The notes under the pieces are model-generated. The model was not told the origin of the DNA and made no database searches. It saw only the letters and a list, made by a program, of their open reading frames with translations. From positions 270,001-302,000 of the forward strand of contig OW818675.1 in NCBI GenBank assembly GCA_942493095.1: a stretch of DNA of 32,000 nucleotides. The letters run 5' to 3'. Numbering within the stretch: the first letter of the stretch is position 1; every line of letters starts with the position of its first letter. Shown here one piece after another: positions 1 to 20,101 of this stretch. A program made the translations under genes and the position numbers. Source of the stretch: Candidatus Electronema halotolerans (GTDB lineage: Bacteria; Desulfobacterota; Desulfobulbia; Desulfobulbales; Desulfobulbaceae).

Positions 1-64
1 TGAGCAAGGCCAGAGAGCTGCGGCAAGCGAACTGCGGCAATTTTTGGCATGACATCTTGTTTGT

Positions 65-865
65 TCATCCGCTTGAACGTTGACTTGCATCGGCAAAATT
101 CCGCACACAGCCTGCGTCATTCAACTGCAAGATGATTTCCACACATCCATGTCTGACTTCAAGATAAGAAAGCAGCGTGTAAATAATTCCAACCACGCCA
201 AGCATTTCAAGCAACTCTTCGCTGGTGTACAGGAGGCAGTAGATTGCAGAATCATAGCCGTGCAGCTCTGCTTCTCTGCCGCCAAGCATGTCAAAAACAA
301 CAGCTCCGATTAAATAGACAGCACCAGAAAGCATGAACAGCCTTGCTGTTCGTGCAGGCAGACCAAGAACAAATTTGATGTGGAGCAGAACAAAAAGAAC
401 TGTCAATAAAATGTAGGGAAGAACCCAAGGGAAATACAGTAAGCCAGTCGCGTGCATATAGCCTGACACAACATCTCCTGCTGCCTCATGCAGTTCAAAG
501 GCCTCATCTGCTGACAAGAAGAGGAAGGTGAGAAAGAGGCCAAACCAATACATGCTGTTGCGGCTGTCTGTTTTTCGTTCCAAACCTGCCAGAAGAAAAG
601 AGAGCAGAGAACAGATCAAAATGGCGGCGGCGGAATACAATGAAGGAATGTTTCTTTCGATATCTAAATCAAACCATAAAGTGAAATCGAGCACATTCGG
701 ATTGTCAGAGTGGAAAAATAAAAAAAGAGCGAGGCAATGGAGCAGTGTCAACAGGATGACCGTCAGCAGAAAAAGGAAGGCGGTCTTTTTGGCCTTGATC
801 GTTATCTGCACGATCTCTGTCAGTCTGCTGTCCCGCCCAACAAGAGCGCGGGACAGTCCTTGCAA
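65..865 (-). CDS. multi-pass integral membrane protein, unknown function
   Basis: 266-aa ORF with several long hydrophobic segments (FLFLLTVILLTLLHCLALFLFF, LYSAAAILICSLLSFLLAGL, WFGLFLTFLFLSA, WVLPYILLTVLFVLLHI, LFMLSGAVYLIGAVVF). It begins 8 nt after the stop of the 873-1454 gene on the same strand. The track start is TTG with no clear SD, so the 5' end is uncertain. No family recognised. Confidence 0.55.
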   Translation of the reverse strand: MQGLSRALVGRDSRLTEIVQITIKAKKTAFLFLLTVILLTLLHCLALFLFFHSDNPNVLDFTLWFDLDIERNIPSLYSAAAILICSLLSFLLAGLERKTDSRNSMYWFGLFLTFLFLSADEAFELHEAAGDVVSGYMHATGLLYFPWVLPYILLTVLFVLLHIKFVLGLPARTARLFMLSGAVYLIGAVVFDMLGGREAELHGYDSAIYCLLYTSEELLEMLGVVGIIYTLLSYLEVRHGCVEIILQLNDAGCVRNFADASQRSSG

Positions 866-872
866 AAAGGCT

Positions 873-1454
873 TCACTTTCTGCCTTTTGAGCCTTTCTCT
901 TTCTTAGAACCCTTTTTCCACTTTGACCCTTTCTTCTTCGAGCCTTTGTTCCAATCTCCCCTCTCTCTCCAGCTTAGAGCATAGTGCCAGATAACAGCAG
1001 GAACATCTTGCCGCAGCACAATAAACCGTTTTGAGCCGGGTTTAATGCCCAAGGACAGAACAACAGCTCCCCAGCCTTTTCCTTTGTGCTGCCTGAAATG
1101 ATGAATGATTTTTTGGTACGGCTTTCCGCTCAGTCTGACAATCTGAAAGACCATGAAGATATCTGCTGGCTGCATTCTCTCCTTGGCAAACAGCAGGATG
1201 ACCTTTTCTCTGGGAACATGGAACGCCGTGCTGATATCGCCAATATATTGCTCAACGCTTCCCGCAGCGGTTCTGTTGACTTCAATCAAAAAACTGTCAA
1301 AGTCCCGGTCGCCGGTATGAGGCAGATATTGAGGATTGAGCTGGAATATCATGCCGCTGGCCGCTGGCGGCTGCTGGCGGGGAAAATCTTTTCCTTGGAC
1401 GGAATATGCGCCCAAAAGACTGATCAGCAGAATGCTGACAGCAATTTTTTTCAT
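873..1454 (-). CDS. exported protein with Lys-rich KGSK-repeat C-terminal tail, unknown function
   Basis: ATG at 1454 with GGAGG (complement of 1462-1466) 7 nt upstream. Signal peptide MKKIAVSILLISLLGAYSVQG. C-terminus KGSKKKGSKWKKGSKKEKGSKGRK. Confidence 0.6.
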   Translation of the reverse strand: MKKIAVSILLISLLGAYSVQGKDFPRQQPPAASGMIFQLNPQYLPHTGDRDFDSFLIEVNRTAAGSVEQYIGDISTAFHVPREKVILLFAKERMQPADIFMVFQIVRLSGKPYQKIIHHFRQHKGKGWGAVVLSLGIKPGSKRFIVLRQDVPAVIWHYALSWRERGDWNKGSKKKGSKWKKGSKKEKGSKGRK

Positions 1455-1620
1455 CTGTAGGCCTCCTTTTGCTTGCTTGAAAATGCACGTTGTTCACAGA
1501 ACTTATCTGTCTGACAGCAAGCTGTCAACAGCAATTTTTTCTTTCACGCCATCCAAGAAAGGATGCCGACAGACTTGCCCTGTCCTGCCTTGGAAAAAAA
1601 AGCACACTGCCTTGGAAAAA

Positions 1621-1673
1621 CATCATTTTTTCATCTTTCTTTCATCTTGCACCGGGTAAGCTGGAAATGTAAG
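1621..1673 (+). promoter_or_regulatory. box A: tandem direct-repeat operator plus -10-like hexamer upstream of the 1734 gene
   Basis: CATCA at 1621, TTCATCTT at 1630-1637 and TTCATCTT at 1641-1648, giving CATC cores at 1621/1632/1643 in exact 11-bp phase. GGTAAGCTGGAAA follows from 1655. A -10-like TGTAAG sits at 1668-1673, 19 nt after the second repeat. Same layout as boxes B and C. Confidence 0.5.
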
Positions 1674-1733
1674 GAGACGGCGCAGGCATTGATCCTGCCC
1701 GAAAAACAGCAGTCTGAACAGGAGGGACTGGTC

Positions 1734-1973
1734 ATGAAAACAAAAATATTCGCAGGACTGATCAGCAGTGTTTTGCTGGCCTGTCTGTGGCTGGAGCGGT
1801 CAGCGATTGCAACTGCGGCAGGTTGTGCAGAGGCGCCTGCTGCTCCCCCCGCAGCGCAGCAGGCGGACGCAGTTCTGCGCATCATGAGCAGCACGAACAG
1901 TTCCGCGTTGGAAGATGAGGTGCCGGTTCTCCTGCTCAACTTGAGCTTGGACAAGGAGCTGCCGGGAAAATGA
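1734..1973 (+). CDS. small exported protein (possible lipoprotein), unknown function
   Basis: Internal ATG of the 1563-1973 ORF, preceded by GGAGGGA (1721-1727). The N-terminus MKTKIFAGLISSVLLAC resembles the signal peptides of the 2112 gene and the 2564 stub, and LLAC is lipobox-like. The mature part is Ala/Pro-rich then acidic. Box A lies upstream. Confidence 0.5.
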   Translation: MKTKIFAGLISSVLLACLWLERSAIATAAGCAEAPAAPPAAQQADAVLRIMSSTNSSALEDEVPVLLLNLSLDKELPGK

Positions 1974-1999
1974 CTCGGCAAGCAAAAAAAAGATTATCT

Positions 2000-2043
2000 T
2001 TCATCTTTCGTTCATCTTCAGTCTGGTATCTTGAAAGTATAAG
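2000..2043 (+). promoter_or_regulatory. box B: tandem TTCATCTT operator plus -10-like hexamer upstream of the 2112 gene
   Basis: TTCATCTT at 2000-2007 and 2011-2018 (11-bp phase). After a 6-nt gap comes GGTATCTTGAAAGTAT at 2025-2040. TATAAG at 2038-2043 starts 19 nt after the second repeat, so the repeats overlap the -35 position. Confidence 0.55.
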
Positions 2044-2111
2044 CATGAGGCACAAAGACTGGACCTCTCTGATGACAAACACGGCAACAACAGGATAGAG
2101 GAGATTTGGTT

Positions 2112-2423
2112 ATGAAAAGAATGATTGCTGGACTTATCGGCGGCGTTTTCTTTGCAGGACTGTTCTTGGGCAATGCGGCAGCCAGCGGCGATGATCGCTA
2201 CGAATACGGTGAATACGGCGAGCATGGCCGGTATTACAATCCCTACGGCAACGGCTACTACAACAACGGTTACAGGAATCACGAGATGTACGAGTATGGC
2301 AATCCGTACCGTTATCAGCCTGTCATGCCCAGTGTTTATGTCAATCCGTATTACAACAACAGCTCTTATGGCAACGGCTACAGAAACCATGAGGCCTATG
2401 AGTACGGCGGCTACCGCAGATGA
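2112..2423 (+). CDS. secreted Tyr/Gly/Asn-rich repeat protein (paralog 1)
   Basis: ATG 2112 with GAGGAG (2098-2103) upstream. Signal peptide MKRMIAGLIGGVFFAGLFLGNAAA. The mature part is low-complexity with two NGYRNHE(M/A)YEYG units and ends GGYRR. It shares a 29-nt identical stretch with the 2699 gene (2292-2320 = 2885-2913). Confidence 0.75.
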   Translation: MKRMIAGLIGGVFFAGLFLGNAAASGDDRYEYGEYGEHGRYYNPYGNGYYNNGYRNHEMYEYGNPYRYQPVMPSVYVNPYYNNSSYGNGYRNHEAYEYGGYRR

Positions 2424-2445
2424 GATGATTCAGCGGATAAAAAAA

Positions 2446-2497
2446 CATCATTTTTCATCTGCTGTTCATCTTGAGTTTGGTATCTTGAAAGTATGAG
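2446..2497 (+). promoter_or_regulatory. box C: tandem TTCATCT operator plus -10-like hexamer upstream of the 12-codon stub
   Basis: CATCA at 2446, TTCATCTG at 2454-2461 and TTCATCTT at 2465-2472. After a 6-nt gap comes GGTATCTTGAAAGTAT at 2479-2494, identical to box B. TATGAG at 2492-2497 starts 19 nt after the second repeat. Confidence 0.5.
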
Positions 2498-2563
2498 GAA
2501 CGGGGCGCAAGGGGCTGCGCTCCAAGACTGACAACAGGTCACGACGAAAAAGGAGGTTTGACC

Positions 2564-2602
2564 ATGAAGAAGTTGATTGCAGGATTGATCGGCGGCGTTT
2601 GA
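2564..2602 (+). pseudogene. truncated remnant (signal-peptide stub) of a third Tyr-rich-family paralog
   Basis: AAGGAGG (2550-2556) is followed by ATG 2564, encoding MKKLIAGLIGGV and then TGA at 2600-2602. The peptide matches MKRMIAGLIGGV of the 2112 gene. Box D of the next gene starts about 10 nt later, so the gene body appears deleted. Confidence 0.5.
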
Positions 2603-2611
2603 AGTCCTAAA

Positions 2612-2652
2612 TTAATCTTCTGTTAATCTTTTCTTTGCTATCTTGTTATAAA
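2612..2652 (+). promoter_or_regulatory. box D: tandem TTAATCTT operator plus TATAAA upstream of the 2699 gene
   Basis: TTAATCTT at 2612-2619 and 2623-2630 (11-bp phase). After a 6-nt gap comes GCTATCTTG at 2637-2645. TATAAA at 2647-2652 starts 16 nt after the second repeat. This is a variant of boxes A-C. Confidence 0.45.
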
Positions 2653-2698
2653 CAAAAGCAATTCGCTCTCACCCAAACCCAAAATAGGAGGCTTACTC

Positions 2699-3046
2699 GT
2701 GAAAAAGACAACAGCAGCTATAACCTTGGTTGGCTCGTTCCTCGTACTGGCACTCTTCGCGACTGCCCACGGCAGCGGATACGGCAGCGGATACGGGGGT
2801 GGCTATGGATACGGCAGCCGCTATTATAATCCCTACTATAACAACGGCTATTACAACAACGGCTACAGAAACCATGAGGCGTATGAGTATGGCAATCCGT
2901 ACCGTTATCAGCCGACCGTGCCCAGCGGTTATGCCAATCCGTATTACAATAACTACAATAGTGGTTATTATGGCAACGGCTACTACAACAATGGCTACGG
3001 AAACCATGAGGCTTATGAGTACGGCAACGGCGGCTACCGCAGGTAA
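2699..3046 (+). CDS. secreted Tyr/Gly/Asn-rich repeat protein (paralog 2)
   Basis: GTG 2699 with AGGAGG (2686-2691) 7 nt upstream. Signal peptide MKKTTAAITLVGSFLVLALFATAHG. By hand count the 90-aa mature part has 27 Tyr, 20 Gly and 16 Asn, and no Cys, Trp, Leu, Ile, Met, Phe, Lys or Asp. It carries two NGY(R/G)NHEAYEYG units and ends GGYRR. Confidence 0.75.
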   Translation: MKKTTAAITLVGSFLVLALFATAHGSGYGSGYGGGYGYGSRYYNPYYNNGYYNNGYRNHEAYEYGNPYRYQPTVPSGYANPYYNNYNSGYYGNGYYNNGYGNHEAYEYGNGGYRR

Positions 3047-3117
3047 AAGCGGGCCTGCCGCCTGAGCGAAAGGCGGCGCCATCCCGGCGCAAGTGCCACA
3101 AGCTGGGATAAAAATAT

Positions 3118-3159
3118 GGGTGGTCAGCATAATCATATTGATTTTGGCCACCCTTTTTT
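3118..3159 (+). terminator. rho-independent terminator after the Tyr-rich genes
   Basis: GGGTGGTC (3118-3125) pairs with GGCCACCC (3146-3153) at 7 of 8 positions, with a 20-nt loop, followed by TTTTTT (3154-3159). Confidence 0.5.
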
Positions 3160-3220
3160 GTAAAAGTAAAAAGAAATGAAATTGATTTCATTTCGTTGCA
3201 AGAAAAAAAGGAGGAACCCA

Positions 3221-3535
3221 TTGAAACACGTATTGCTTCTGCTGCCGTTATGTGCGATGCTGCTTGTAGGGACGGCGCGGGCTGATTCGGATGAGCACAG
3301 AGGATATGCCAGCGCAAAATTCTATGGCATCATTGATGCTTTGCCCGAAAACAACAGCATCTTCGGCACATGGCTGATCAACGGCAGGCAGGTTGCGGTC
3401 ACTCGCGGCACGGAGATTGAACAGAAACGCGGCAGAATTGCTCCAGGTGTGTATGTCAAAGTGGAAGGATATCATTCCGGGAGCGTCTTTGTCGCCGAAG
3501 AGATTGAGGTGAAGCGGGAAAAAAGGCGGTCATGA
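3221..3535 (+). CDS. secreted single-domain beta-rich protein (DUF5666-like)
   Basis: TTG 3221 lies 6 nt after GGAGG (3210-3214); the track's upstream ATG 3176 lacks an SD. Signal peptide (M)KHVLLLLPLCAMLLVGTARA. The domain is KFYGIIDALPENNSIFGTWLINGRQVAVTRGTEIEQKRGRIAPGVYVKVEG...VAEEIEVK, homologous to domains in the 3639 and 4377 genes. Confidence 0.7.
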   Translation: MKHVLLLLPLCAMLLVGTARADSDEHRGYASAKFYGIIDALPENNSIFGTWLINGRQVAVTRGTEIEQKRGRIAPGVYVKVEGYHSGSVFVAEEIEVKREKRRS

Positions 3536-3580
3536 AACATCTTGTTTTTCATCGCCATTCCATCCAGTATCTGATAAAAT
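3536..3580 (+). promoter_or_regulatory. box F: degenerate CATC direct repeats plus extended -10 upstream of the 3639 gene
   Basis: AACATCTT at 3536-3543 and TTCATCGC at 3548-3555 (12-bp phase), with a third CATCC at 3561. GTATCTG at 3567-3573. TGaTAAAAT has its hexamer at 3575-3580, 19 nt after the second repeat as in boxes A-C. Confidence 0.4.
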
Positions 3581-3638
3581 CATGCGGCAAACCGCATAGC
3601 AATAATTGGACCATGCCGTCCAAAAAGGAGAAGACATC

Positions 3639-4301
3639 ATGAAACGCGCATTCCTTTCCCTGACAGCAGCTCTTGGAGTCTTGGCTTTATTCGCAGTTTC
3701 CGCCCAAGCCAGCCCGGGTGAATATTATGAACGCGGCAGAGGGTATTATGGCAGTGGATATTACGGTGGTGGCGGAGGATATTACGGGGCAAGCAAGTTC
3801 TACGGCACAGTGGAAGCCATGCCGCCTGCCGGTTTTGCAGGGATATGGCAGATCAACGGACGGGATGTGGTGGTCAATCAGCGCACCTTCATCAAGGAGG
3901 AATATGGCAGAATTGGTGTTGGGGCGTATGTTGAAGTGAAAGGCGGCGGCAATCCTTTCATGGCCTATGAGCTTGAAGTGAAACGCGGCGGAATGCCGGC
4001 TCCGCCTCCTCCAGCAATGGGCGGCGGGATGAATCTCTCCGGCTCTGCGGGAGTCATGCCGCCTTCCGGGTCTGTCGGCACTCCTCCTCCAGCAATGGCT
4101 GGGGTGAATTTCACCGGTCCGGTGGAGTCGCTGCCTCCGACTGGTTTTTTTGGCACGTGGCGAATCGGCGGGCGTGATGTGATTGTCAATAATGGCACCC
4201 GCATCAAGCAGGAGAACGGCCCAATCAGCGCGGGCAGCAATGTTGATGTTAAGGGCGGCGGCAATCCCTTTGTCGCTTATGAAATCGAAAGCAAACCCTG
4301 A
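3639..4301 (+). CDS. secreted protein with a Tyr/Gly-rich N-terminus and two DUF5666-like domains joined by a Pro/Met-rich linker
   Basis: ATG 3639 follows AAGGAG (3625-3630). Signal peptide MKRAFLSLTAALGVLALFAVSAQA, then GEYYERGRGYYGSGYYGGGGGYYG. Domain 1 is KFYGTVEAMPPAGFAGIWQINGRDVVVNQRT...VEVKGGGNPFMAYELEVK. The linker is GGMPAPPPPAMGGGMNLSGSAGVMPPSGSVGTPPPAMAG. Domain 2 is NFTGPVESLPPTGFFGTWRIGGRDVIVNNGT...VDVKGGGNPFVAYEIE. Confidence 0.8.
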   Translation: MKRAFLSLTAALGVLALFAVSAQASPGEYYERGRGYYGSGYYGGGGGYYGASKFYGTVEAMPPAGFAGIWQINGRDVVVNQRTFIKEEYGRIGVGAYVEVKGGGNPFMAYELEVKRGGMPAPPPPAMGGGMNLSGSAGVMPPSGSVGTPPPAMAGVNFTGPVESLPPTGFFGTWRIGGRDVIVNNGTRIKQENGPISAGSNVDVKGGGNPFVAYEIESKP

Positions 4302-4309
4302 TTATTCAC

Positions 4310-4343
4310 CTGCCGGGGCGGCGCAGCACGGTCTCCCCGGCAG
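4310..4343 (+). other. intergenic hairpin with a 9-bp perfect stem and no U-tract
   Basis: CTGCCGGGG (4310-4318) pairs with CCCCGGCAG (4335-4343) around a 16-nt loop. It lies between the 3639 and 4377 genes. Confidence 0.4.
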
Positions 4344-4376
4344 TTCCAGCAGCAGCTTTCCGCAGGCAGTCTCATC

Positions 4377-4718
4377 ATGAACAGCAGCAATCTCCGCAGC
4401 ATCTTTGTCCTGCTGGCCGCTCTCTCCTTCCTCTGCGCAGGTGCTGCGCAGGCGGAGGAGCGGGAGCGTCCGCATTTCTACCAGCCAGGCGCAGGCTATG
4501 AGAAGGAGCCGACCTACACCTTTACCGGCGTGATCCGCAAGCTGCCGGAAAAAGGCAAGGTCGGCATCTGGGTTATTGACGACCGTCTGATCGTTGTCAC
4601 TTCCATGAGCCAGATTCACGGCACGGCGGCGGTCGGTGCCAGCGTCACGGTCAAAGGGGTGCTGCAAGACACTGATTTTCTTGCTCTCACCATTGAAGTT
4701 GCGGCCAGCAAGGACTGA
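4377..4718 (+). CDS. secreted single-domain beta-rich protein (DUF5666-like)
   Basis: Signal peptide MNSSNLRSIFVLLAALSFLCAGAAQA. The domain TFTGVIRKLPEKGKVGIWVIDDRLIVVTSMSQIHGTAAVGASVTVKG...LALTIEV aligns with the three domains upstream. No obvious SD. Confidence 0.65.
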   Translation: MNSSNLRSIFVLLAALSFLCAGAAQAEERERPHFYQPGAGYEKEPTYTFTGVIRKLPEKGKVGIWVIDDRLIVVTSMSQIHGTAAVGASVTVKGVLQDTDFLALTIEVAASKD

Positions 4719-4761
4719 GCAGCTTTTACTCAAACTGCTCTGCGCAGAGCAGGCAAATTGT

Positions 4762-4792
4762 GCAATCGGCGGATGCTGCGATTGTTTTGTTG
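4762..4792 (+). terminator. possible terminator between the secreted-protein array and the cyt b561/TCS operon
   Basis: GCAATCG (4762-4768) pairs with CGATTGT (4779-4785, terminal G-U) around a 10-nt loop, followed by TTTTGTTG. Confidence 0.35.
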
Positions 4793-4840
4793 TCGTCATG
4801 CCTTCAAATTCTCTCACAAAAAAACAAGGAGGAGTAAAAA

Positions 4841-5434
4841 ATGAGTGCCACCGCACCTGAAACCGCCCCGCTGGGCACACCGGTCCGCTTCTGGCATTTG
4901 GCCATGATTGTCTTGGTGCTTGCCGCACTGTTCACTGGCGAGGGAGCTGATGACTATAAAAAAGTGGAACATGCCGGATTCCTTCTCCACGGCAGGGTCG
5001 GCCTGTCTGTGTTCACCGCGCTCTGCCTGTATTTTTTGTACGGTCTGATCGGGCCGCAAGGACACCGACTTTCCAGCTGGTTTCCCTTCACAGGAGCACG
5101 GCTGCGGCAGACTGGCAAGGATCTGGCCGTGCTGACCCGCTTCAAGCTGCCGGAACACAATCGGCGGCAGGGCCTGGCTGGCTTGGTGCAGTTTTTCGGC
5201 CTGCTGGTTTTTTCCTGGCTTGCAGTCACTGGCAGTCTGATGTATTTTTTTATGGAGCGGGGTGCCAAGGCGCAGGGCCTCATGCACGCGGTCAAAGAGG
5301 CGCATGAAGCCGGGACCGTGCTGATTTTCGTCTATTTAGCCCTGCATGTCGGGGCCGTGATCGCGCACTCGCTGACCGGGCATCACGTCTGGCAGGACAT
5401 TTTCTTCCTGAAAAAGGAGCCAGGGGAATCTTGA
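4841..5434 (+). CDS. cytochrome b561-family (CybB/YceJ-like) di-haem membrane protein
   Basis: AAGGAGGAG lies upstream. There are four TM segments with His residues in the pattern of bacterial cytochrome b561: RFWHL in TM1, LLHGRVG in TM2, EAHEAG before TM4 and LHVGAVIAHSL in TM4. The stop at 5432-5434 is 1 nt before the response regulator start. Confidence 0.7.
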   Translation: MSATAPETAPLGTPVRFWHLAMIVLVLAALFTGEGADDYKKVEHAGFLLHGRVGLSVFTALCLYFLYGLIGPQGHRLSSWFPFTGARLRQTGKDLAVLTRFKLPEHNRRQGLAGLVQFFGLLVFSWLAVTGSLMYFFMERGAKAQGLMHAVKEAHEAGTVLIFVYLALHVGAVIAHSLTGHHVWQDIFFLKKEPGES

Positions 5435-5435
5435 A

Positions 5436-6110
5436 ATGAAAATTCTGGTGGTTGAGGATGAGAGGCGGCTGACGGCTCTGCTCAAAAAAGGTCTGGAGGA
5501 AAACGCCTTTGTCGTCGATGTCTGTTATGACGGCGCGGAAGGACTGTACTTAGTCGAAACCTCGCCTTATGATGCGGTGGTGCTGGATGTCATGATGCCC
5601 AAGATGGACGGCTTCACCATGCTGCGCCGGATGCGGGAGCAGGGCCTTGAAACGCCGGTCATCATGCTCACTGCCAGAGGCGAGGTGGATAACCGGATCA
5701 AAGGGCTGAACACCGGCGCGGATGACTATCTGCCCAAGCCCTTTGATTTTGCTGAACTGCTTGCCCGGCTGACTGCAATTATCCGGCGGAACAAGGGCCA
5801 GTCCGCCTCGCAGGTGTGCATTGCTGATCTGTACATGGATATAAATTCCAAAACCGTGGCCAGAAGCGGGGTTGACATTCCGCTCACCGCCAAGGAGTAT
5901 GCGATTCTCGAATATCTCGCCCTGAACAAAGGCCGGGTGGTCAGCCGGACGGAATTCTCCGAGCATATTTATGATATGAATTTCGACTTGGACAGCAACA
6001 TCATTGATGTCTATATCAACCGCCTGCGCAATAAAATTGACAAAGGCCATGCCTGCCCCCTGATTCACACCAAACGGGGCGAGGGCTACATTTTGAGCGA
6101 GGAGCTGTGA
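5436..6110 (+). CDS. OmpR/PhoB-family response regulator, CusR/CopR-like
   Basis: Receiver motifs are MKILVVEDE, VVLDVMMPKMDG and LTARGEVDNRIKGLNTGADDYLPKPFDFAELLARL. The C-terminal winged-helix domain contains LTAKEYAILEYL and IHTKRGEGY. The sequence closely resembles E. coli CusR from memory. Confidence 0.95.
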   Translation: MKILVVEDERRLTALLKKGLEENAFVVDVCYDGAEGLYLVETSPYDAVVLDVMMPKMDGFTMLRRMREQGLETPVIMLTARGEVDNRIKGLNTGADDYLPKPFDFAELLARLTAIIRRNKGQSASQVCIADLYMDINSKTVARSGVDIPLTAKEYAILEYLALNKGRVVSRTEFSEHIYDMNFDLDSNIIDVYINRLRNKIDKGHACPLIHTKRGEGYILSEEL

Positions 6111-7516
6111 TCCTGATCAACTCCATCAAGGGCCGTCTGCTGCTCTGGATTTTTATTTCTGTCACCATCCTGTTTGCCGGTTTTGGCTATGCCCTGCACC
6201 TCAAGCTCCATTATGTGGTCGAGGAGTCGCTGGACCGGATGCTTCATGCCAATCTCCAGTTTGTCAAGGGGCTGGTGCACAGTCATGACGGCGTGACTAT
6301 TGAGTGCGAGTCCAATGAATTCATGCAGGGGGATTACATGACCCCGGACTCCGGCCACTATTACAAGGTCTTTCTTGACGGCGAGCTGCTCGCGGCGGCA
6401 GATTCCCTGCCGGATAAAAATTTCAATCTCACGCAGGGCGAGCCGCTGGAGCATCATGCCAGAGCCAAGGAATGGGTCTATCAGGCCAAGGGCGCGAACG
6501 GCGAGCCGCTGCGGGTATTGCGGCATGATTTCAAGTTCATGGGCAAAGATGTCCGCATTGAGTTGGCCGAGGATATCAATGAGAGCATGGTGATGATTCA
6601 CCGTCTAAGCAATTACTTCCTGATTGTCACCCCAGTGGTGATTATGCTGATTGCCTTGATCAGCATAACCATCGCCTCCCTGTCGCTGCGGCCTTTGGAT
6701 AGATTTTCTGTCACCTTGGAACAGATCAGTCATAAAAATTTAGATGTCCGGCTGGCGGAACAGACTCAAGTGCGGGAGCTGCAGCGGCTGGCAAAAAAAT
6801 TCAATTCTCTGATGGCCCGGCTCCAGCAGGCTTTTGAGGCGGAAAAGCATCTGCTCGGCGATGCGGCCCATGAACTGAAAACGCCGCTGGCCGTGATCAA
6901 GGCCGAATGCGACATTTCCCTGAGCAGGAGCAGAGCGGCGGATCAGTATGCGGGCAGCCTCAGGGAAGTGCGGACTGTGGCAGACACCATGCTGGAGCAG
7001 ATCAATGGTTTGCTGATACTGACCCGTTTAGATTCCGGCATTTTGGATGCCGGGACCTTTGAGCAGCTTTCTCTGAACAGCTGTGTGGAAAATGCGGTGC
7101 GGATGGCCGAGCCGCTGGCCAAGAAAAAAAACATTGCCATCAGCATTGCCCAGAACAGCGAGCTGACCGTCTTGGGCGACAAGGACACCCTGACTGAGGC
7201 AGTGCTCAATCTTGTTGAAAACGCGATTAAATACAACCACCCTGGCGGCTTTGTCGCGGTCAAGCTGACCAAGCGGGCGGCGATGGCGGAAATCGTGGTC
7301 ATTGACACCGGCATCGGCATCAGCGAGGAGGATCGGACGCGGATTTTTGACCGGTTCTACCGTTCTGCTGAGGCCCGCAATGCGGAAGGAAGCGGCTTGG
7401 GTCTGAGCATAGTCCGAGCCATTGCCCAAACGCATCATGGTGAAATTACTGTTGAAACACCACCAGACGGCGGCAGTCGCTTCATCCTCAAACTGCCGCT
7501 GACTGTCTCAGCTTGA
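6107..7516 (+). CDS. sensor histidine kinase, CusS/CopS-like (two TM segments, periplasmic domain, HAMP, HisKA, HATPase)
   Basis: GTG 6107 overlaps the regulator stop (GTGA). TM1 is LLLWIFISVTILFAGF and TM2 is LIVTPVVIMLIALISITIASL. H-box is AAHELKTPLA, N-box is ENAIKYN, and the G-boxes are DTGIGI and GSGLGLSIV. Confidence 0.92.
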   Translation: MILINSIKGRLLLWIFISVTILFAGFGYALHLKLHYVVEESLDRMLHANLQFVKGLVHSHDGVTIECESNEFMQGDYMTPDSGHYYKVFLDGELLAAADSLPDKNFNLTQGEPLEHHARAKEWVYQAKGANGEPLRVLRHDFKFMGKDVRIELAEDINESMVMIHRLSNYFLIVTPVVIMLIALISITIASLSLRPLDRFSVTLEQISHKNLDVRLAEQTQVRELQRLAKKFNSLMARLQQAFEAEKHLLGDAAHELKTPLAVIKAECDISLSRSRAADQYAGSLREVRTVADTMLEQINGLLILTRLDSGILDAGTFEQLSLNSCVENAVRMAEPLAKKKNIAISIAQNSELTVLGDKDTLTEAVLNLVENAIKYNHPGGFVAVKLTKRAAMAEIVVIDTGIGISEEDRTRIFDRFYRSAEARNAEGSGLGLSIVRAIAQTHHGEITVETPPDGGSRFILKLPLTVSA

Positions 7517-8323
7517 TGACTGGATCCCGCAGCTTTCTCGCTCAAAATCCCGCAGGGCAACAATAGTCGGCTTGTCGCCGCAGACTGGACAGTCAGGCCG
7601 TCGCCGCAGGCTGACCCGGCGGAAATTCATGGTCTTGGCATCAAAGGTCAGGAGCACGTCGGTGAGCAGAATGCCTGCGCCGGTGATGAATTTAAGGGCT
7701 TCCGCAGCTTGAATCGTGCCCAGCATTCCGGCAACCGCGCCCAGCACCCCGGACTGCGAGCAGCTTGGCACGGATTTGGCAGGGGGCGGCTCGTGGAAGC
7801 AGCAGCGGTAGCAGGCTGATTTGCCTGGCAGCACAGTCAAGGTCTGGCCGTCAAAGCGGAGAATGCCGCCGTGCGAGAAAGGAATGCCCGCCATCACGCA
7901 GGCATCGTTGATGAGAAATTTGGTGGCGAAATTGTCGGTGCCGTCGATGACAAAATCATACTGCCGGATGATTTCCTCAATATTGGAGGCATCCAAGTAG
8001 AGCAGCCACGGCTCGACCTTGACATCAGGATTGATGGCCTTGAGCTTGGCCTCAGCAGACTCCACCTTGGGCCGGTCAAGATCAGCGGTGGTGTGAATGA
8101 TCTGCCGCTGGAGATTGGAAATATCGACTGCGTCGGCATCGACCAAACCAATGGTGCCCACGCCTGCGGCGGCAAGATACAAAGAAACCGGCGAACCCAG
8201 TCCGCCGGTGCCCACGACCAGCACTCTTGCCCGCAGCAGCTTGGCCTGTCCTTCCGGCCCCACCTCTTTGAGAATCAGGTGGCGGCTGTAACGGTCCATC
8301 TGCTCGTCAGTCAGATTCAGCAT
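7508..8323 (-). CDS. thiF: ThiF/MoeB-family adenylyltransferase (E1-like)
   Basis: Motifs are RYSRHLIL, VLVVGTGGLGSPVSLYLAAAGVG and NLQRQIIH, with Zn-site Cys pairs CYRCC and CPVCG. I prefer ATG 8323 (GAGGTG upstream) to the track's TTG 8374, which lacks an SD. The 3' end overlaps the kinase stop convergently by 9 nt. Confidence 0.85.
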   Translation of the reverse strand: MLNLTDEQMDRYSRHLILKEVGPEGQAKLLRARVLVVGTGGLGSPVSLYLAAAGVGTIGLVDADAVDISNLQRQIIHTTADLDRPKVESAEAKLKAINPDVKVEPWLLYLDASNIEEIIRQYDFVIDGTDNFATKFLINDACVMAGIPFSHGGILRFDGQTLTVLPGKSACYRCCFHEPPPAKSVPSCSQSGVLGAVAGMLGTIQAAEALKFITGAGILLTDVLLTFDAKTMNFRRVSLRRRPDCPVCGDKPTIVALRDFERESCGIQSSS

Positions 8324-8439
8324 GGACACCTCATCAAAGGCAGGACAGGTCTGGTGCGAGCAGTCATTTTTCAAATCAAGTAGTTGGGCCGACAGCAGTG
8401 CTGGCCGCCGTCGGCCCTTGTCAAAAAAAGAAGGTTGAA

Positions 8440-8646
8440 TCAGCCTCCGGCCATGAAATAAAGGAGGTCCACTTGGTTTCTGTCGCCGACCACGGTGTCA
8501 TGATAGGCGCCGCGATGCACGATTTCGCCGTCAATTTGCACAGCCACCATTTCCGGCGACATGACTTGCTCCATCTCCAGCAGTCCGGCCACCGTCAGAT
8601 GCGGCACCTCAATGAAGCGGGACTCTCCGTTCAACCTGATTTCCAT
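8440..8646 (-). CDS. thiS: ThiS/MoaD-family sulfur-carrier protein (C-terminal GG)
   Basis: Internal ATG 8646 with GGAGGAG upstream. The 68-aa product is MEIRLNGE...DLLYFMAGG and ends in Gly-Gly. It lies next to the E1-like gene. Confidence 0.75.
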   Translation of the reverse strand: MEIRLNGESRFIEVPHLTVAGLLEMEQVMSPEMVAVQIDGEIVHRGAYHDTVVGDRNQVDLLYFMAGG

Positions 8647-8920
8647 AATTTTTCTCCTCCAGAAAATTAATGGCGCATGGGGTTTCAGCCATACTCCGCA
8701 TAATCGAAAAATTACACGGACATATATTATAATTACTACAATGCGGCAGCCCTGCATGTCAAGGAGAAAAAACCAATTTCCTGATTATCATTCCTGACAG
8801 CCCGGCAGCAGAGCCTCCTCTCCGCTGAAAATACAATTTATGATACTCTGAAACAGGCCGCACTGCAAGATTTGAACTAACTGCTGCATTTTTGTTGCTC
8901 AGGGAGGAGAAGCACCCAAG

Positions 8921-9655
8921 TCAGCGCAGCAGGGCGCGGGCATTGAGCGGCTGGACTGGACGGTTGTTCGGGCCGCCCATGACCTCAGTGAACTGCTTGA
9001 CCTGAGCCTTGGAGACCATGACCGGATTGCGCAGAATCAGCCAGAGCACGCCTTCTGTGCAGGGCGGCGTGGTCAGCGAGCCGTTCAAGCGCAGATAGTC
9101 GCGTTTTTCCGGCAGCAGCCCTTCGGCCCGGACACGGGCGGCCATGTCCTCCTCTTGGCCCGCCTTTTTTGGCATCTGCCGCCAGAGCTTTTTCAGCTCA
9201 GGATTTTCCTTGCCATAGTCATAGAGCACGGCCAGCACCGCCAGATGCCCGTCCGCATCAGCATGAACAAAATGCCCCTCCAGCGGAAAATGCTCGCCTT
9301 TGACCTGATGCTCGCTCGGGGCATGAAAATGAATCTGCTTCAGCTGATAGGTTCTGCCATTGACCGTCAGCGTTGAGCCTGCGGCATAGTCGGCCTGAAT
9401 GGAGTGGCCGTTGTTCTTGATCCTGATGACCAAGCCGTTGTAATCAAAGGTCAGCGGCTCCAGCTCCGCCTCAAGGCAGCCGGTCAGATTGACCGGCGAC
9501 TGGTTGACCCCCTTGGCGCAGAGATTGTAGGCCGGATCCAGCCCGGCCCAATGCTCCGGCCCAGTTTTGCCAGCATAGCTCCAATGCCCTTCGGAGGCTG
9601 CCGCTGTTCCGGCCAGCAGCAGAGCCAGCGCAGCGGCAGACAGCATTCTCTTCAT
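8921..9655 (-). CDS. alpha-class carbonic anhydrase, periplasmic
   Basis: Signal peptide MKRMLSAAALALLLAGTAAA. Hallmark motifs are HWSYAGKTGPEHW, QSPVNL and QIHFHAPSEHQVKGEHFPLEGHFVH. Confidence 0.9.
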   Translation of the reverse strand: MKRMLSAAALALLLAGTAAASEGHWSYAGKTGPEHWAGLDPAYNLCAKGVNQSPVNLTGCLEAELEPLTFDYNGLVIRIKNNGHSIQADYAAGSTLTVNGRTYQLKQIHFHAPSEHQVKGEHFPLEGHFVHADADGHLAVLAVLYDYGKENPELKKLWRQMPKKAGQEEDMAARVRAEGLLPEKRDYLRLNGSLTTPPCTEGVLWLILRNPVMVSKAQVKQFTEVMGGPNNRPVQPLNARALLR

Positions 9656-15736: not shown

Positions 15737-18007
15737 ATGAATGACCTGATCAAGCAGCTTCAGGAGATTGACCGGCGCATCGGCTATCTGATCCATATAA
15801 AAGATTCAGATCAATGGGGCAATCTGGCTGAATTCCGCCGCCGGGCCGAACAGCTGCGCAACTCGGCCTTTGATGTCAGCCGGGATGAATTCAGCGCCCG
15901 TCTCGACAAGTTGGATGACTCGCTCCGTTTTCTCGAAGAGCGCTGCGAAGAGGGCCTGACTCCGATGGAACGGGTGCGGATTGTCCGTTCACCGCTGCGC
16001 TTCACGCTCAAGGACATTCTTGAGAATGTCTATGAGGAGCACAAGGAGCTGGGCGGCGCAGGCGAGGCCAATATTGATCCGGCTATGGTGGTGGCCAAGG
16101 CCAACATTGTCCGACGGATAAAGCGCAAGCCTTACACCTCGCCAGTGATGGTCATTGGTCAGGAGGTCGGCAAAGGCGAGGAGTTCCGCAACGGCGGCTC
16201 CTGCAAGCCGTGGGGCAATGAGAAGGCCATGCGCTATATGCGGGTTGCTGAGACCGAAGGCATTCCAATTCATTTCTACATCTTCACGCCCGGCTCGTAT
16301 CCGATTGAGGACTATCCCGGCGCGGCCCAGCAGATTGCCCGCAATCTCTACACCATGACCAAGCTGCGGGTGCCGATGATCTCGGTGATCTCCGAAGGCG
16401 GCTCCGGCGGAGCTGAGGCCGTTGGTTTGAGCGACTTCCGCCTCATGTTTTCGCATGGCTATTACTCGGTCATCTCGCCGGAAGGCGCAGCGGCTATTGA
16501 GGGCAAAGTCAGGGAAGGCACCAAAGCATCGCCGGAGCTGATTGAAAAATGCGCCCGCCAGCTCAATATCACCGCTGCCGACAATCTCCGCCTTGGCACC
16601 ATTGACCGGATCATCAAGGAACCGCTGCTGGGTGCGAAAAGCGATGACTATGCCTTTTTCGCCCGCGTCCGCTCCGAGGTCATCCGGGCCACAGACGAGG
16701 CCGTGCTGAAAACCAAGAGCGTGCGCGGTTTCCGGGCTTATGAGGTCAAGCGGAAAAAAGCGGAAAACCCGGATGAAGCGCCCCAGATTGACATTCCGTG
16801 GGACTTGGACGAGGGCGAGACAGACAGGCTGCTGGAGCTGCGTTCCAAAAAATACCGGGAGATGAGTCTGCACAGTTTTGGCGGCATCACCATGCCAGCG
16901 GAGAACATCTTCCGGGCACTGTATTCTGTTTCTGAAAAAATCTGGTACACTATCCGCTATGATGTGCTGAAAAGTCAGCACAAGCAGATGCAGAAGACGA
17001 TCAAAGAGATTTCCGGCGAAGGCACGGCCTTGGTCAACCGCATCACCGCGCCTTTCACGAAAATTTTCTGTCGGGAGGAGCACGAAAGCAGGCCAGTGCC
17101 CCGCTCCCTGACTTCTGCGGCTCCACAAACTGCGGGTGATTACTGCCTGCTCCAAGACCCGCTGGAATTGACCGACACCTACACCAGCCCCTTGGCCAAT
17201 GAGGATCGGACCATCACCTGCCCGAATGCGGAGAAATACGGCTGCAAAGACTTGTGGATACCTGATCTGTATGGCGAATTCTGCGGGGTCTGTGAAAACT
17301 GCGGCCATCACTTTCCCCTTGAATATCAGTGGTATTTGCAAAACGTCTTTGATTCCGGCTCAATCCGCATTTTCAACAACGATATTTTTTCCAAAAATCC
17401 GCTCAACTACGAGGGCTTTGACGAGCGGTTGCAGGCGGCCCGCGCCAAAACCGGCATGGGCTGCGCCAATCTGACCTTTCATGCCAAGGTCAGGGATATC
17501 GAATTAGTTGTGACCATGCTTTTTTCTGATTTCCGCAACGGCACAGTCGGCTCGGCTGAGGGAGAAAAGTTTGTCCAAGCCTGCGACATTGCCCGGCGCA
17601 AAAAACGGCCTCTGCTCGCCTACATCCACACCACGGGCGGCATCCGCATTCAGGAAGGCACCCTTGGCGTGGCCCAGATGCCCAAATGCACGATGGCGGT
17701 GCGCGAGTACATCGACGCGGGCGGTCTGTACATAGTGGTCTATGACAACAACTCCTACGCTGGACCAGTGGCCTCGTTCCTCGGCTGCTCGCCGTATCAA
17801 TTCGCCATCCGCTCCAGCCGGATCGGCTTTGCCGGGCCGCGTGTCATCCGCGAAACCACTGGCATTGACATTCCGCCTGATTACCACGATGCCCGCAACG
17901 CCCTGAAACGCGGCCACATTCAAGGCATCACCGACCGGCGTGACTTCCGCCGTCATCTTTATCAGGTCATGCAGACTATGGGCAGTCCCGGGCTGTACTA
18001 TCGGTGA
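15737..18007 (+). CDS. fused carboxyltransferase: AccA-like N-terminal half and AccD-like C-terminal half
   Basis: The N-terminal half has GSCKPWGNEKAMRYMRVAETEGIPIHFYIFTPGSYP and SEGGSGGAEA...YSVISPEGAAAI (AccA pattern). The C-terminal half has a Cys-rich Zn-ribbon-like FCGVCENCGHHF followed by an AccD-like core (TGGIRIQEG, GFAGPRVI). Confidence 0.85.
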   Translation: MNDLIKQLQEIDRRIGYLIHIKDSDQWGNLAEFRRRAEQLRNSAFDVSRDEFSARLDKLDDSLRFLEERCEEGLTPMERVRIVRSPLRFTLKDILENVYEEHKELGGAGEANIDPAMVVAKANIVRRIKRKPYTSPVMVIGQEVGKGEEFRNGGSCKPWGNEKAMRYMRVAETEGIPIHFYIFTPGSYPIEDYPGAAQQIARNLYTMTKLRVPMISVISEGGSGGAEAVGLSDFRLMFSHGYYSVISPEGAAAIEGKVREGTKASPELIEKCARQLNITAADNLRLGTIDRIIKEPLLGAKSDDYAFFARVRSEVIRATDEAVLKTKSVRGFRAYEVKRKKAENPDEAPQIDIPWDLDEGETDRLLELRSKKYREMSLHSFGGITMPAENIFRALYSVSEKIWYTIRYDVLKSQHKQMQKTIKEISGEGTALVNRITAPFTKIFCREEHESRPVPRSLTSAAPQTAGDYCLLQDPLELTDTYTSPLANEDRTITCPNAEKYGCKDLWIPDLYGEFCGVCENCGHHFPLEYQWYLQNVFDSGSIRIFNNDIFSKNPLNYEGFDERLQAARAKTGMGCANLTFHAKVRDIELVVTMLFSDFRNGTVGSAEGEKFVQACDIARRKKRPLLAYIHTTGGIRIQEGTLGVAQMPKCTMAVREYIDAGGLYIVVYDNNSYAGPVASFLGCSPYQFAIRSSRIGFAGPRVIRETTGIDIPPDYHDARNALKRGHIQGITDRRDFRRHLYQVMQTMGSPGLYYR

Positions 18008-18036
18008 TTTTTTTGCCTGAGCCGGAGGATTTTCGC

Positions 18037-18065
18037 TTGACCTTGCCGCTCGGCTGTGGCAAAAT
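18037..18065 (+). promoter_or_regulatory. sigma70-like promoter, a copy of the tRNA-Lys promoter
   Basis: TTGACC (18037-18042), a 17-nt spacer, then CAAAAT (18060-18065). The -35 hexamer and spacer are near-identical to those of the tRNA promoter at 18535-18563. Confidence 0.35.
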
Positions 18066-18244
18066 TTTTCTAAAGGGAACCTCGATAAATTGGTGTTTTT
18101 GGCAGTTGTTGCTTTGCAACTGCTTGATTATTCGACAGCGCTTTCGGCAAGATCGGCATTTTTTCGAGGAACCATAAAGCCAATTGTTCTCTCTGTTTTG
18201 AACAACAGATTGATATTATCTACTTTAATCCAAAGAGGCAAGCA

Positions 18245-18496
18245 ATGAAAAAAGAGGAGCTGCTTCAGTTTGTTGAAGAGAAAATCAACAGTTATGCTCA
18301 ACGCATCATTGATGCTAATGACAAGGGTGATGATTCTGCGTTGGGAGAATTGATTGTCTATATGGGCTTGCGCAGAATCTTGAAAGGCGAGGAGCGTCGC
18401 ATTCAAGACTATGGCATGATGGATGCTTTTAATGATGTCCTGAAGGAGCTGGGCATTATCAAGTCCGGCAAGTTCTATCAGGATTATTTTCAGTAA
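18245..18496 (+). CDS. small hypothetical protein (83 aa, acidic, helical)
   Basis: ATG 18245 follows AGAGG (18233-18237). It lies in an AT-richer segment. Its composition is more protein-like than the overlapping 150-aa minus-strand ORF. Confidence 0.45.
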   Translation: MKKEELLQFVEEKINSYAQRIIDANDKGDDSALGELIVYMGLRRILKGEERRIQDYGMMDAFNDVLKELGIIKSGKFYQDYFQ

Positions 18497-18534
18497 GTTG
18501 CCAAGCCGTACAGACGACCGCAGAATTTTTTTGC

Positions 18535-18563
18535 TTGACCTTGCGGCCCGGCTGTGGTAGATA
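18535..18563 (+). promoter_or_regulatory. promoter of tRNA-Lys
   Basis: TTGACC (18535-18540), a 17-nt spacer, then TAGATA (18558-18563), about 20 nt upstream of the mature tRNA 5' end. Confidence 0.55.
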
Positions 18564-18582
18564 AGAAGGACATTTTTCACAG

Positions 18583-18658
<76 letters not shown>

Positions 18659-18669
18659 GCAGCACATTC

Positions 18670-18704
18670 AAGGAGTCAGCCTCTTGCAGGTTGACTCCTT
18701 TTTG
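18670..18704 (+). terminator. rho-independent terminator after tRNA-Lys
   Basis: AAGGAGTCAGCC pairs with GGTTGACTCCTT (one mismatch), followed by TTTTGTTT. Confidence 0.75.
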
Positions 18705-18945
18705 TTTATGTTGCTAATGAGCTATGCTGAATCTGTCATCTCCAGCTCTTGCAGGAGAAAATCGCGAACATGATGTTTTGTCGCAGAGGCTTGAAATGAT
18801 GCATCGTGCTGATGATTTTTTATTGCAGGATGCAGAAGGAAAGAATCGTTAGCTTGCAGGAGAGAATCGAGGTCGCGCAGGAAAACTTGCACCTGCCGAT
18901 TTTTCACTCAGGCATCAGGATAAAAAGCAACAGGAGGATGTGATC

Positions 18946-19290: not shown

Positions 19291-19293
19291 TGT

Positions 19294-20052: not shown

Positions 20053-20101
20053 CATTATTCACGCAGTATCTGCTTTAGTCAGACAAGGCAGCGTTGTAGT
20101 A

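Follow-up and report, generated by a model that had tools for sequence, protein, structure and literature searches.

The window analysed here, 32,000 nucleotides of a contig from Candidatus Electronema halotolerans, contains between 1.7 and 7.5 kb a cluster of nine genes in which six small secreted proteins (A to F) are followed by a cytochrome b561, a response regulator and a sensor histidine kinase (Table 1). The source organism is a freshwater-type cable bacterium of the Desulfobulbaceae, and every substantial gene of the cluster was on the plus strand. We tentatively favour the reading that the cluster is an autoregulated envelope-stress regulon, the signal of which is most likely a periplasmic metal cation, with iron as the favoured candidate. 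The original prediction, made from the letters of the window, had proposed a metal or redox buffer as one of several roles, and this idea is kept, conditionally, as the best reading. Its description of a plus-strand array of six small proteins with Sec signal peptides was borne out by the open reading frames (ORFs), by a signal peptide rule and by the ratios of non-synonymous to synonymous substitution rates (dN/dS). An origin in the Desulfobacterota, which it had assumed, was right.

The full array was syntenic in at least nine other Electronema loci. These were L004 (Electronema sp. KV), L005 (GCA_976560315), L006 and L007 (two ENA metagenome contigs), L009 (Electronema sp. PJ), L010 (Electronema sp. 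TJ), L011 (a Desulfobulbaceae metagenome-assembled genome, MAG), L013 (a 229-kb JGI contig) and L098 (Ca. Electronema aureum GS). The order kept was that of Tyr-rich genes, DUF5666 genes, cytochrome b561, regulator and kinase, with one or two Tyr-rich and three to five DUF5666 copies per locus. Co-occurrence of the small proteins with the two-component system in other genomes, which had been proposed as a check, was thus found in the syntenic loci. A scan of genome contigs, which used very strict patterns, returned 4 Electronema loci. Genes for ThiF, ThiS, carbonic anhydrase and GAPDH lay downstream in most of the syntenic loci, and the order of these genes and of DsbD was conserved in the Electronema loci that reached that far.

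A shared promoter module points to common control of the array. Four exact copies of the direct repeat TT[CA]AT-N6-TT[CA]AT were found in the 32 kb, at 1630, 2000, 2454 and 2612, against 0.18 expected by simulation. All four were on the plus strand, inside the array and just upstream of small genes. The half-sites are 11 bp apart, the second at the -35 position, and an extended -10 (TGnTAnnnT) follows about 10 nt further down, which is the layout of PhoB-type activator-dependent promoters. The 1630 box was kept at the orthologous position in L005 and L006, and the 2454 box was near-identical to one at position 10359 of L006, where the gene behind the box is intact. Across 23 related loci we recovered 33 distinct instances, with 34 occurrences on the coding strand versus 4 on the opposite strand. 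Their consensus was tTTCATCTTccgTTCATCTT-N6-TGgTAnnnT with fixed spacing, and box and -10 together can be searched as tTTCATCTT-N3-TTCATCTT-N6-TGnTAnnnT. The direct-repeat module of the original prediction is therefore real. The claim that it precedes five of the six starts needed correction, since the five modules precede A, B, a stub, C and E, and not D or F. A sigma-54 reading of the TGGTA element was rejected, as its spacing to any TTGC-like element was unfit, while an extended -10 at a fixed 10 nt fits.

In two related loci, L015 and L016, the box precedes the first gene of an operon encoding the regulator and kinase themselves. The system is therefore most simply read as autoregulated, with the regulator as the box-binding protein; we infer that it binds the boxes of the array as well. 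A perfect palindrome with the same TTCAT half-site, AAATGAAAT-TG-ATTTCATTT, was found at 3184-3203, between the terminator behind C and gene D, and was kept only in the closest relative, L006.

Parts of the cluster were also found beyond these syntenic loci. Electrothrix sp. YB6 (L014) had three DUF5666 genes and the cytochrome, with no adjacent two-component system and no Tyr-rich genes, and Electrothrix sp. AR3 (L097) had DUF5666 followed by the cytochrome. A Desulfobulbaceae MAG (L015) encoded a three-domain DUF5666 protein, the cytochrome, the regulator and the kinase. In a metagenome contig (L016) the cytochrome gene, preceded by that of a three-domain DUF5666 protein, was followed by genes for a second cytochrome-b-like membrane protein and a multihaem cytochrome c, and further on by those of the regulator and kinase. 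The box and extended -10 stood ahead of the first DUF5666 gene in all four. The operon of L015 (1-6567) was divergent from a ZIP transporter gene and near ZnuABC genes, and the multihaem cytochrome c of L016 (8623-10568) ended in a His/Asp-rich tail (GYNYYDHDAGGHHDEDHDKHDDD).

A metagenome scan with an alignment of eight cytochrome sequences gave 80 further cytochrome loci, which were annotated with purpose-built hidden Markov models. Among cytochromes of at least 51% identity to that of the window and with upstream DNA available, 13 of 13 had a DUF5666 ORF ending 3-134 nt upstream, and the regulator directly followed the cytochrome in most relatives of this range with downstream DNA. Cytochromes of 50% identity or less formed a distant clade, and mostly had neither a DUF5666 nor a regulator neighbour. 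Tyr-rich genes were found only in the closest loci (at least 72% identity), which were of Electronema type. Judging from these neighbourhoods, the ancestral core is the box, DUF5666, cytochrome b561 and usually the regulator and kinase, and Electronema amplified the DUF5666 genes and recruited the Tyr-rich genes, each with its own box. The combination had been put forward as matching no characterised system. A search of the available literature library found no paper on the cluster or on DUF5666 in cable bacteria, and a literature survey of nickel homeostasis mentioned no two-component system; the arrangement is nonetheless nested, Electronema genes having been added to a wider ancestral core.

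Table 1. Features of the cluster, in coordinates of the 32,000-nucleotide window
Feature	Position	Strand	Description
Box promoter of A	1630-1662	+	Direct repeat TTCATCTTTCTTTCAT; -10-like TAAGCT at 1657-1662
Gene A	1734-1973	+	79 aa, Sec signal; mature part Ala/Pro-rich; conserved C-terminus (EDEVPVLLLNLSLDKELP)
Box promoter of B	2000-2032	+	TTCATCTTTCGTTCAT, then extended -10 TGGTATCTT
Gene B	2112-2423	+	103 aa, secreted, Tyr/Gly/Asn-rich, two N-H-E-x-x-E motifs
Box promoter before stub only	2454-2486	+	Remnant of a former second Tyr-rich gene
Stub	2564-2602	+	12 codons (MKKLIAGLIGGV*); orphaned signal-peptide start of the former second Tyr-rich gene
Variant box promoter of C	2612-2644	+	TTAATCTTCTGTTAAT, then TGCTATCTT; TTAATC variant
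Gene C	2699-3046	+	115 aa, Tyr/Gly/Asn-rich mosaic protein
Intrinsic terminator after C	3118-3160	+	GGGTGGTCAG...GGCCACCC, then T6
Gene D	3221-3535	+	104 aa, secreted, one DUF5666 domain (PF18914)
Box promoter of E	3548-3580	+	TTCATCGCCATTCCAT, one mismatch, then TGATAAAAT; conserved in L006 and L009
Gene E	3639-4301	+	220 aa, secreted; Tyr/Gly tail, DUF5666 OB-like barrel, Pro/Met-rich linker, second DUF5666 barrel
Intercistronic hairpin E/F	4310-4343	+	Stable, without T-run
Gene F	4377-4718	+	113 aa, secreted, divergent DUF5666 domain
Cytochrome b561	4841-5434	+	Membrane protein, PF01292
Response regulator	5436-6110	+	OmpR/PhoB family, nearest to the heavy-metal subfamily
Sensor histidine kinase	6107-7516	+	Two transmembrane segments, ~130-aa periplasmic domain, HAMP, HisKA, HATPase

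The small genes are of unusual composition, and their reality had to be weighed. Independent gene callers called the same gene set on metagenome contigs with identical proteins, and protein B is identical to the hypothetical protein GCAAIG_01250 of Ca. Electronema halotolerans. All six small proteins had a basic n-region, a hydrophobic h-region and an AxA-like cleavage site, judged by this simple rule and not by SignalP. Pairwise dN/dS, with three orthologous loci for comparison (two in the case of gene A), was 0.05-0.32 across all nine genes, with 0.14-0.31 for A, 0.08-0.24 for B, 0.18-0.23 for C, 0.10-0.32 for D and 0.15-0.21 for F. Such purifying values indicate that the low-complexity ORFs are genuine coding genes and not artefacts. 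Their extreme composition, the truncation of one copy to a stub and the mosaic nature of C would suit non-functional low-complexity DNA or annotation artefacts. That reading is nevertheless contradicted by the dN/dS of the small ORFs (0.08-0.32), and by the conservation of promoters and ribosome-binding sites, as well as of motifs and signal peptides, in nine or more further Electronema loci, and we consider it practically untenable.

The cytochrome b561 and regulator genes meet in a TGA-A-ATG junction, the regulator starting 1 nt past the cytochrome stop, and the regulator and kinase genes share a 4-nt GTGA overlap. The array had been said to run directly into this coupled operon. The coupling of cytochrome, regulator and kinase stands, but the array does not abut it, F and the cytochrome being separated by about 120 nt containing hairpins. 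The terminator after C folded better than all of its shuffles (z = -4.25; 0 of 200 fold as well), and a hairpin with a T-run occurred at the matching position in L004-L006, L010 and L011. The hairpin between E and F was kept in position with different sequences in L004 (3171-3205) and L009 (6936-6969). It may be an attenuator or an mRNA-stabilising element setting the ratio of effectors to cytochrome and two-component proteins. A search of positions 1-9000 against Rfam gave two sub-threshold chance matches only, and no known riboswitch or small RNA in the long 5' leaders. At its 3' end (7508-7516) the kinase gene overlaps a convergent ThiF-family gene by 9 nt. Gene A had no Pfam or NCBIfam match, and no NCBIfam model matched any of the six small proteins or the cytochrome b561. 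The idea that A is a lipoprotein was dropped, as its Cys was not kept in L005.

Mature B and C consist of 27-30% Tyr, 15-22% Gly and 14-18% Asn. In the family alignment the N-H-E-x-x-E motif was invariant and occurred twice, together with EHG, and a head of the form ASGDD-YEYGE-YEHGRYYNPY was conserved. ExxE was more frequent than in composition-matched shuffles, with 4 versus 0.52 in mature B and 2 versus 0.12 in mature C. The Tyr-rich protein was predicted to be disordered, AlphaFold2 giving no fold and a predicted local distance difference test score (pLDDT) of 46.5. Neither B nor C matched a Pfam-A family at E <= 1. The family is very small, with 26 members in a word-indexed search of 5.8 billion proteins and 9 representative clusters in a full profile search of 1.84 billion representatives; the named members were Electronema without exception.

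Gene C and the stub have a common history. Positions 2425 to ~2598 of the window matched the second Tyr-rich gene of L006 over its promoter and 12 initial codons, the next ~210 nt matched the promoter and signal-peptide region of the MKKTTAA-type paralogue family of L012, and from ~2815 on the window again matched the L006 gene body. By this three-part pattern the stub is the displaced original 5' end and C a recombinant mosaic. Its signal peptide and GSGYGSGY tract are from the MKKTTAA-type family, and its body is B-type. The L012 paralogues carry RYEYRG repeats, and their locus has a TTAATC box at position 1232. Thr/Met/Ile-rich ORFs called at L098:4045-4314, L012:1436-1606 and L013:6820-6954 resembled Tyr/Asn-rich genes read in the wrong frame, and public annotations probably underestimate the Tyr-rich copy number. 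Bacteriocin or RiPP (ribosomally synthesised and post-translationally modified peptide) precursors were rejected as an identity for B and C, which have Sec signal peptides and, by inspection, no maturation or export genes nearby.

The original prediction had likened the Tyr-rich proteins to the sulfur-globule proteins (Sgp) of purple sulfur bacteria, in which case they would coat periplasmic sulfur deposits. This analogy did not hold beyond composition. In its favour, B and C are small, Sec-exported and Gly/Tyr-rich like SgpA/B/C, the host oxidises sulfide, and Dissulfuribacter thermophilus has a DUF5666 protein that ranks among its most abundant when it disproportionates thiosulfate (PMC13490349). 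Against the analogy, Pfam, which includes an Sgp model, gave no match for either, and there is no detectable homology. Also, the conserved features of the array proteins are His/Glu motifs, the genomic context is a metal-type two-component system with a cytochrome b and not sulfur-oxidation genes, and the family was not found in the other sulfur-oxidising relatives examined. We regard a sulfur-globule role as very improbable.

The second class of small proteins had been guessed to be DUF5666-like, and Pfam confirmed this for D (41.4 bits) and for two stretches of E (47.8 bits), against a PF18914 gathering cut-off of 27 bits. Protein F scored 18.1 bits, below the cut-off, but aligned to the E-family profile in hhalign with 96.9% probability (E = 1.7e-10), which confirms the four domain copies that had been counted in D, E and F. 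The structure prediction that had been suggested for this beta domain was made for E with AlphaFold2 and a 30-sequence alignment. It gave five-stranded barrels at residues 52-114 and 156-218 (pLDDT 81-91), with the N-terminal Tyr/Gly tail and the Pro/Met-rich linker disordered. Foldseek comparison of the two-domain model with the PDB returned OB-fold proteins only, every E-value being above 1e-3, and DUF5666 is accordingly predicted, from the model, to be an OB-fold barrel. The best periplasmic match was CusF (TM 0.59-0.64 over ~79 columns, E 0.04-0.12), and other OB folds matched equally. With the E-family profile, no PDB sequence was matched at E <= 10, and the BOF Pfam domain gave no match at E <= 1. 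Within the barrel a Trp in strand 2 is conserved, and the frequent Met of the AMP motif gives way to Leu or Ile in D and the proteins of L014-L016. The Cu(I) site of CusF consists of His-Met-Met plus Trp. Homology of DUF5666 to CusF was not demonstrable, the barrel having no conserved His/Cys/Met site.

The two secreted classes had been proposed to be linked, and this was confirmed in the relatives. The mature N-termini of orthologous DUF5666 proteins carry acidic YEHGER runs (YEHGERYEHGER) of the same kind as those of the Tyr-rich proteins.

The cytochrome b561 matched PF01292 over residues 13-188 with 65.6 bits (gathering cut-off 30.1). Among relatives down to 39% identity, H19 and H50 were invariant and H155, H169 and H176 were at least 90% conserved; these transmembrane His residues are predicted to be able to ligate two b haems. 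The best model for the regulator was TIGR01387 (heavy metal; 254.6 bits, cut-off 279.2) and that for the kinase was TIGR01386 (245.7 bits, cut-off 292.55), aligned end to end. On the PmrA model the regulator scored 193.3 against a cut-off of 330, and on PmrB the kinase scored 137.5 against 314, so that equivalog level was not reached. The description of the pair as CusRS-like therefore holds as to the best-scoring subfamily, but the scores are below the cut-offs and the DNA site is a direct repeat, not a palindromic copper box. In the sensor domain of 14 orthologues an E-x-x-E motif was invariant, with conserved His residues before it and P-x-SGHYY after it. HExxE in PmrB and RExxE in BqsS are periplasmic iron-sensing motifs (PMC4358008). 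No solved sequence relative was found for the periplasmic domain of the kinase, the matches beginning at the HAMP or DHp region. No efflux pump or multicopper oxidase was recognised among the window ORFs, which were inspected by eye with selected ORFs scanned against Pfam, and no such genes were called in the syntenic loci.

These proteins also bear on the main rival, in which the cluster would be an oxidative-stress system like E. coli HprRS with HiuH and MsrPQ. The kinase would then sense periplasmic oxidants, the cytochrome would resemble the superoxide oxidase CybB in passing electrons between quinol and oxidants of the periplasm, and the secreted proteins rich in Tyr and Met would take up reactive oxygen species, as sacrificial or repairable sinks, in those filament cells that are exposed to oxygen. 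The regulator scored 209.5 bits on the HprR model, HprS was among the best solved-structure matches of the kinase, and the cytochrome belongs to PF01292, the family of CybB. The Tyr content of mature B and C and the Met/Pro-rich linker of E would suit such sinks, and the make-up of the cluster recalls HprRS-MsrPQ, in that a two-component system is joined to a membrane haem protein of b type and a small beta protein of the periplasm. On the other hand, no MsrP-like or other catalytic periplasmic partner is present, an MsrP gene being absent from 1-9.5 kb of the window and from the syntenic loci, and the cytochrome had no detectable PDB sequence match to CybB. The Tyr-rich family conserves His, Glu and Asn in fixed motifs, and not just Tyr and Met, and the conserved feature of the sensor is ExxE and not Met or Cys. 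We consider oxidant sensing unlikely, though it deserves more weight than any other rival.

The favoured metal or redox regulon would work as follows. The periplasmic domain of the kinase, of about 130 aa with its ExxE, would read the signal, and the kinase would then phosphorylate the OmpR-type regulator. The latter would bind the 11-bp-periodic TTCAT-N6-TTCAT at the -35 position, about 10 nt before the extended -10, and up to five promoters (of A, B, the stub, C and E) would be switched on. Small Sec-exported proteins would be made in bulk, namely OB-fold DUF5666 proteins with acidic Tyr/His/Glu tails, to which Electronema alone would add disordered Tyr/Gly/Asn-rich proteins with two N-H-E-x-x-E motifs. 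The secreted proteins would bind or buffer the cation in the periplasm. The cytochrome b561, of a family typically holding two haems, would connect the periplasmic pool to the quinone pool, and could quench radicals or change the redox state of the bound metal. Regulatory wiring of five promoters to the two-component system by way of a PhoB-type box has good support. What the signal is, whether the secreted proteins bind metal and how electrons flow through the cytochrome are points that we infer from several lines of evidence. A metal cation is suggested by the metal-sensor likeness of the two-component system, by ExxE in the sensor and HExxE in the effectors, and by the metal transporter genes and the His/Asp-tailed multihaem cytochrome of related operons. 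Iron is favoured because of the motifs and the iron-rich habitat; Tyr, His and Glu are a typical Fe(III) ligand set. Copper stays a candidate in view of the Met/Pro-rich linker and of the likeness to CusF in fold and to Cus in the two-component system. That DUF5666 is invariably paired with the cytochrome suggests that the OB-fold proteins work with it and that their pool is redox-connected to the quinones.

Several points weigh against this regulon. It was read from genes, and the roles of regulator, signal and metal are predictions. The sequence would suit iron, copper, other cations or oxidants. The regulator and the kinase are both under the curated heavy-metal cut-offs, D and F have no recognisable box upstream, and the ExxE motif is short and could be structural. 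The alignment of the DUF5666 barrel shows no conserved site like that of CusF, be it of His, Cys or Met, and the Foldseek E-values support a generic OB fold alone. The PDB sequence search for the cytochrome b561 gave a chance match only, so that it has no close relative of known function there. Finally, a composition rich in Tyr, Gly, Asn and Arg suits self-association or a gel equally well.

The last point leads to a structural alternative, in which the Tyr-rich and DUF5666 proteins would be parts of the periplasmic conduction machinery. As an aromatic matrix or adaptor they would join the membrane carriers (the cytochrome b561 and a nearby DsrOP-like tetrahaem complex) to the fibres, with Tyr as an electron- or proton-hopping residue. 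Protein with a high content of aromatic amino acids is reported to make up the fibres (bioRxiv 10.1101/2020.10.23.351973). The cytochrome b561 is present in every cable bacterium, where its role is recorded as unclear, and it forms one clade in Electronema and another in Electrothrix (PMC12093952). All named members of the Tyr-rich family are from cable bacteria. In L011 (~3000-4300) and L013 (980-5126) the array stands directly downstream of a locus of small transmembrane, iron-sulfur, NrfD and tetrahaem genes, the TMH1-DsrOhPh-tetrahaem locus (also pACIII) described in PMC13047784, which is a literature candidate for the route of electrons to the periplasm. The array of the present window does not border on the tetrahaem locus. 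Further, Tyr-rich genes occur in Electronema loci only and are missing from Electrothrix loci despite the same kind of fibre, and the DUF5666/cytochrome b561/two-component core is also found in Desulfobulbaceae contigs without a cable-bacterium label. Disorder is predicted for the proteins, and activator-dependent promoters would be unusual for a constitutive structural component. We hold such a structural role to be improbable. Similarly slight is the chance that the Tyr-rich and tailed DUF5666 proteins form an inducible redox-active gel, condensate or coating in the periplasm between membrane carriers and fibres. They would then be part of the aromatic-rich protein fraction of the conduction apparatus, their Tyr arrays and bound metal carrying electrons or protons, a proposal to which we give as little weight.

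The cytochrome b561 of cable bacteria is one gene of a conserved DUF5666/two-component unit with a recognisable operator, and the inducer of the box would offer a concrete route to its role. The Tyr-rich proteins are a very small orphan family with sharply conserved His/Glu motifs. As buffers of iron or other cations, they would be relevant to the survival of the cells in the metal fluxes from sediment acidification by cable bacteria; as structural or redox-active proteins, they would be relevant to what the conduction machinery is made of. The presence of the cluster in Ca. Electronema aureum GS, which is probably available as an enrichment culture, makes these predictions testable.

Other features of the window were recorded. 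A multi-pass membrane protein is encoded on the minus strand at 65-865, just upstream of the array. Paralogues of it flank the MKKTTAA-type Tyr-rich genes of L012 (245-964 and 2723-3442), which hints at a functional link with the Tyr-rich proteins. Pfam gave nothing above its cut-offs for the window protein or for the L012 paralogue. Next to it, a gene at 873-1454 (minus strand) encodes a secreted protein of 193 aa, which matched no family and has a Lys/Gly/Ser-rich C-terminal tail (KGSKKKGSKWKKGSKKEKGSKGRK), and appears to be co-transcribed with the membrane protein gene. A gene at 26984-27757 (minus strand) encodes 257 aa, of which the C-terminal part is an AIR-carboxylase domain (Pfam AIRC, 55 bits) and about 120 aa form an extension at the N-terminus. 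This architecture is the one associated with LarB of nickel-pincer cofactor synthesis, so that the protein is a LarB candidate, of possible interest since the fibres of the organism carry a nickel cofactor. The stretch 18000-21000 has a GC content of 0.45-0.49, compared with about 0.57 elsewhere, and small ORFs, one of them (19657-20052) PIN-domain toxin-like. It may be a small acquired island or a toxin-antitoxin locus.

Among known systems, the ygiW-qseBC operon of Aggregatibacter and the ygiW-firRS operon of Haemophilus use iron-linked sensing through a short acidic periplasmic motif (PMC4660874). They share with the cluster a Sec-exported OB-fold gene upstream of a co-transcribed OmpR-family regulator and kinase, with an autoregulated promoter site. 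A secreted OB-fold gene co-oriented upstream of the regulator and kinase, with a box in its own promoter, is also present here, a likeness of architecture only. The OB protein is of the BOF/YgiW type there, and DUF5666 here. In addition, the cluster has a cytochrome b561 gene between the OB genes and the two-component system, three or four OB genes per locus, and the added Tyr-rich family, each with a box.

The regulon of BqsRS (CarSR) includes an OB-fold protein, CarO. The BqsR site of Pseudomonas aeruginosa, shown experimentally, is TTAAG-N6-TTAAG over the -35 element, so that the systems have in common a 5-bp direct repeat with a 6-bp spacer at this position, besides an ExxE-type motif in the periplasmic sensor loop (RExxE in BqsS) and a regulon of small envelope proteins (PMC4358008). 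The half-site differs, being TTCAT or TTAAT here. BqsRS is without a cytochrome b561 or Tyr-rich proteins, and the regulator and kinase of the cluster are nearer to the Cus/Czc/Cop subfamily than to BqsRS or PmrAB. CusRS/CusCFBA of E. coli represents the curated subfamily that scored best for the regulator and the kinase, though below the cut-offs, and its effector CusF, a periplasmic OB-like barrel, is the best periplasmic structural match of the DUF5666 model. The CusR box is a palindromic copper box, unlike the direct repeat found here, no resistance-nodulation-division efflux pump or multicopper oxidase was recognised in the cluster, and the DUF5666 barrel is without the copper site of CusF.

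The HprRS, HiuH and MsrPQ components sit at one E. coli locus, where a Cus-like two-component system is likewise accompanied by a membrane b-haem protein and a small beta-rich protein of the periplasm. The cluster differs from them in having no molybdoenzyme MsrP, and its haem protein is of PF01292 and not of the MsrQ or ferric reductase domain type. In yceJ-yceI pairs a PF01292 cytochrome b561 gene lies beside that of a small secreted beta-barrel protein. The barrel there is the lipid-binding YceI, while that of the cluster is an OB-like DUF5666 under two-component control. By analogy, then, the core design resembles known autoregulated operons of periplasmic OB-fold proteins and two-component systems (ygiW-qseBC, BqsRS), and the new elements are the pairing of DUF5666 with cytochrome b561, the multi-promoter array and the orphan Tyr-rich HExxE family.

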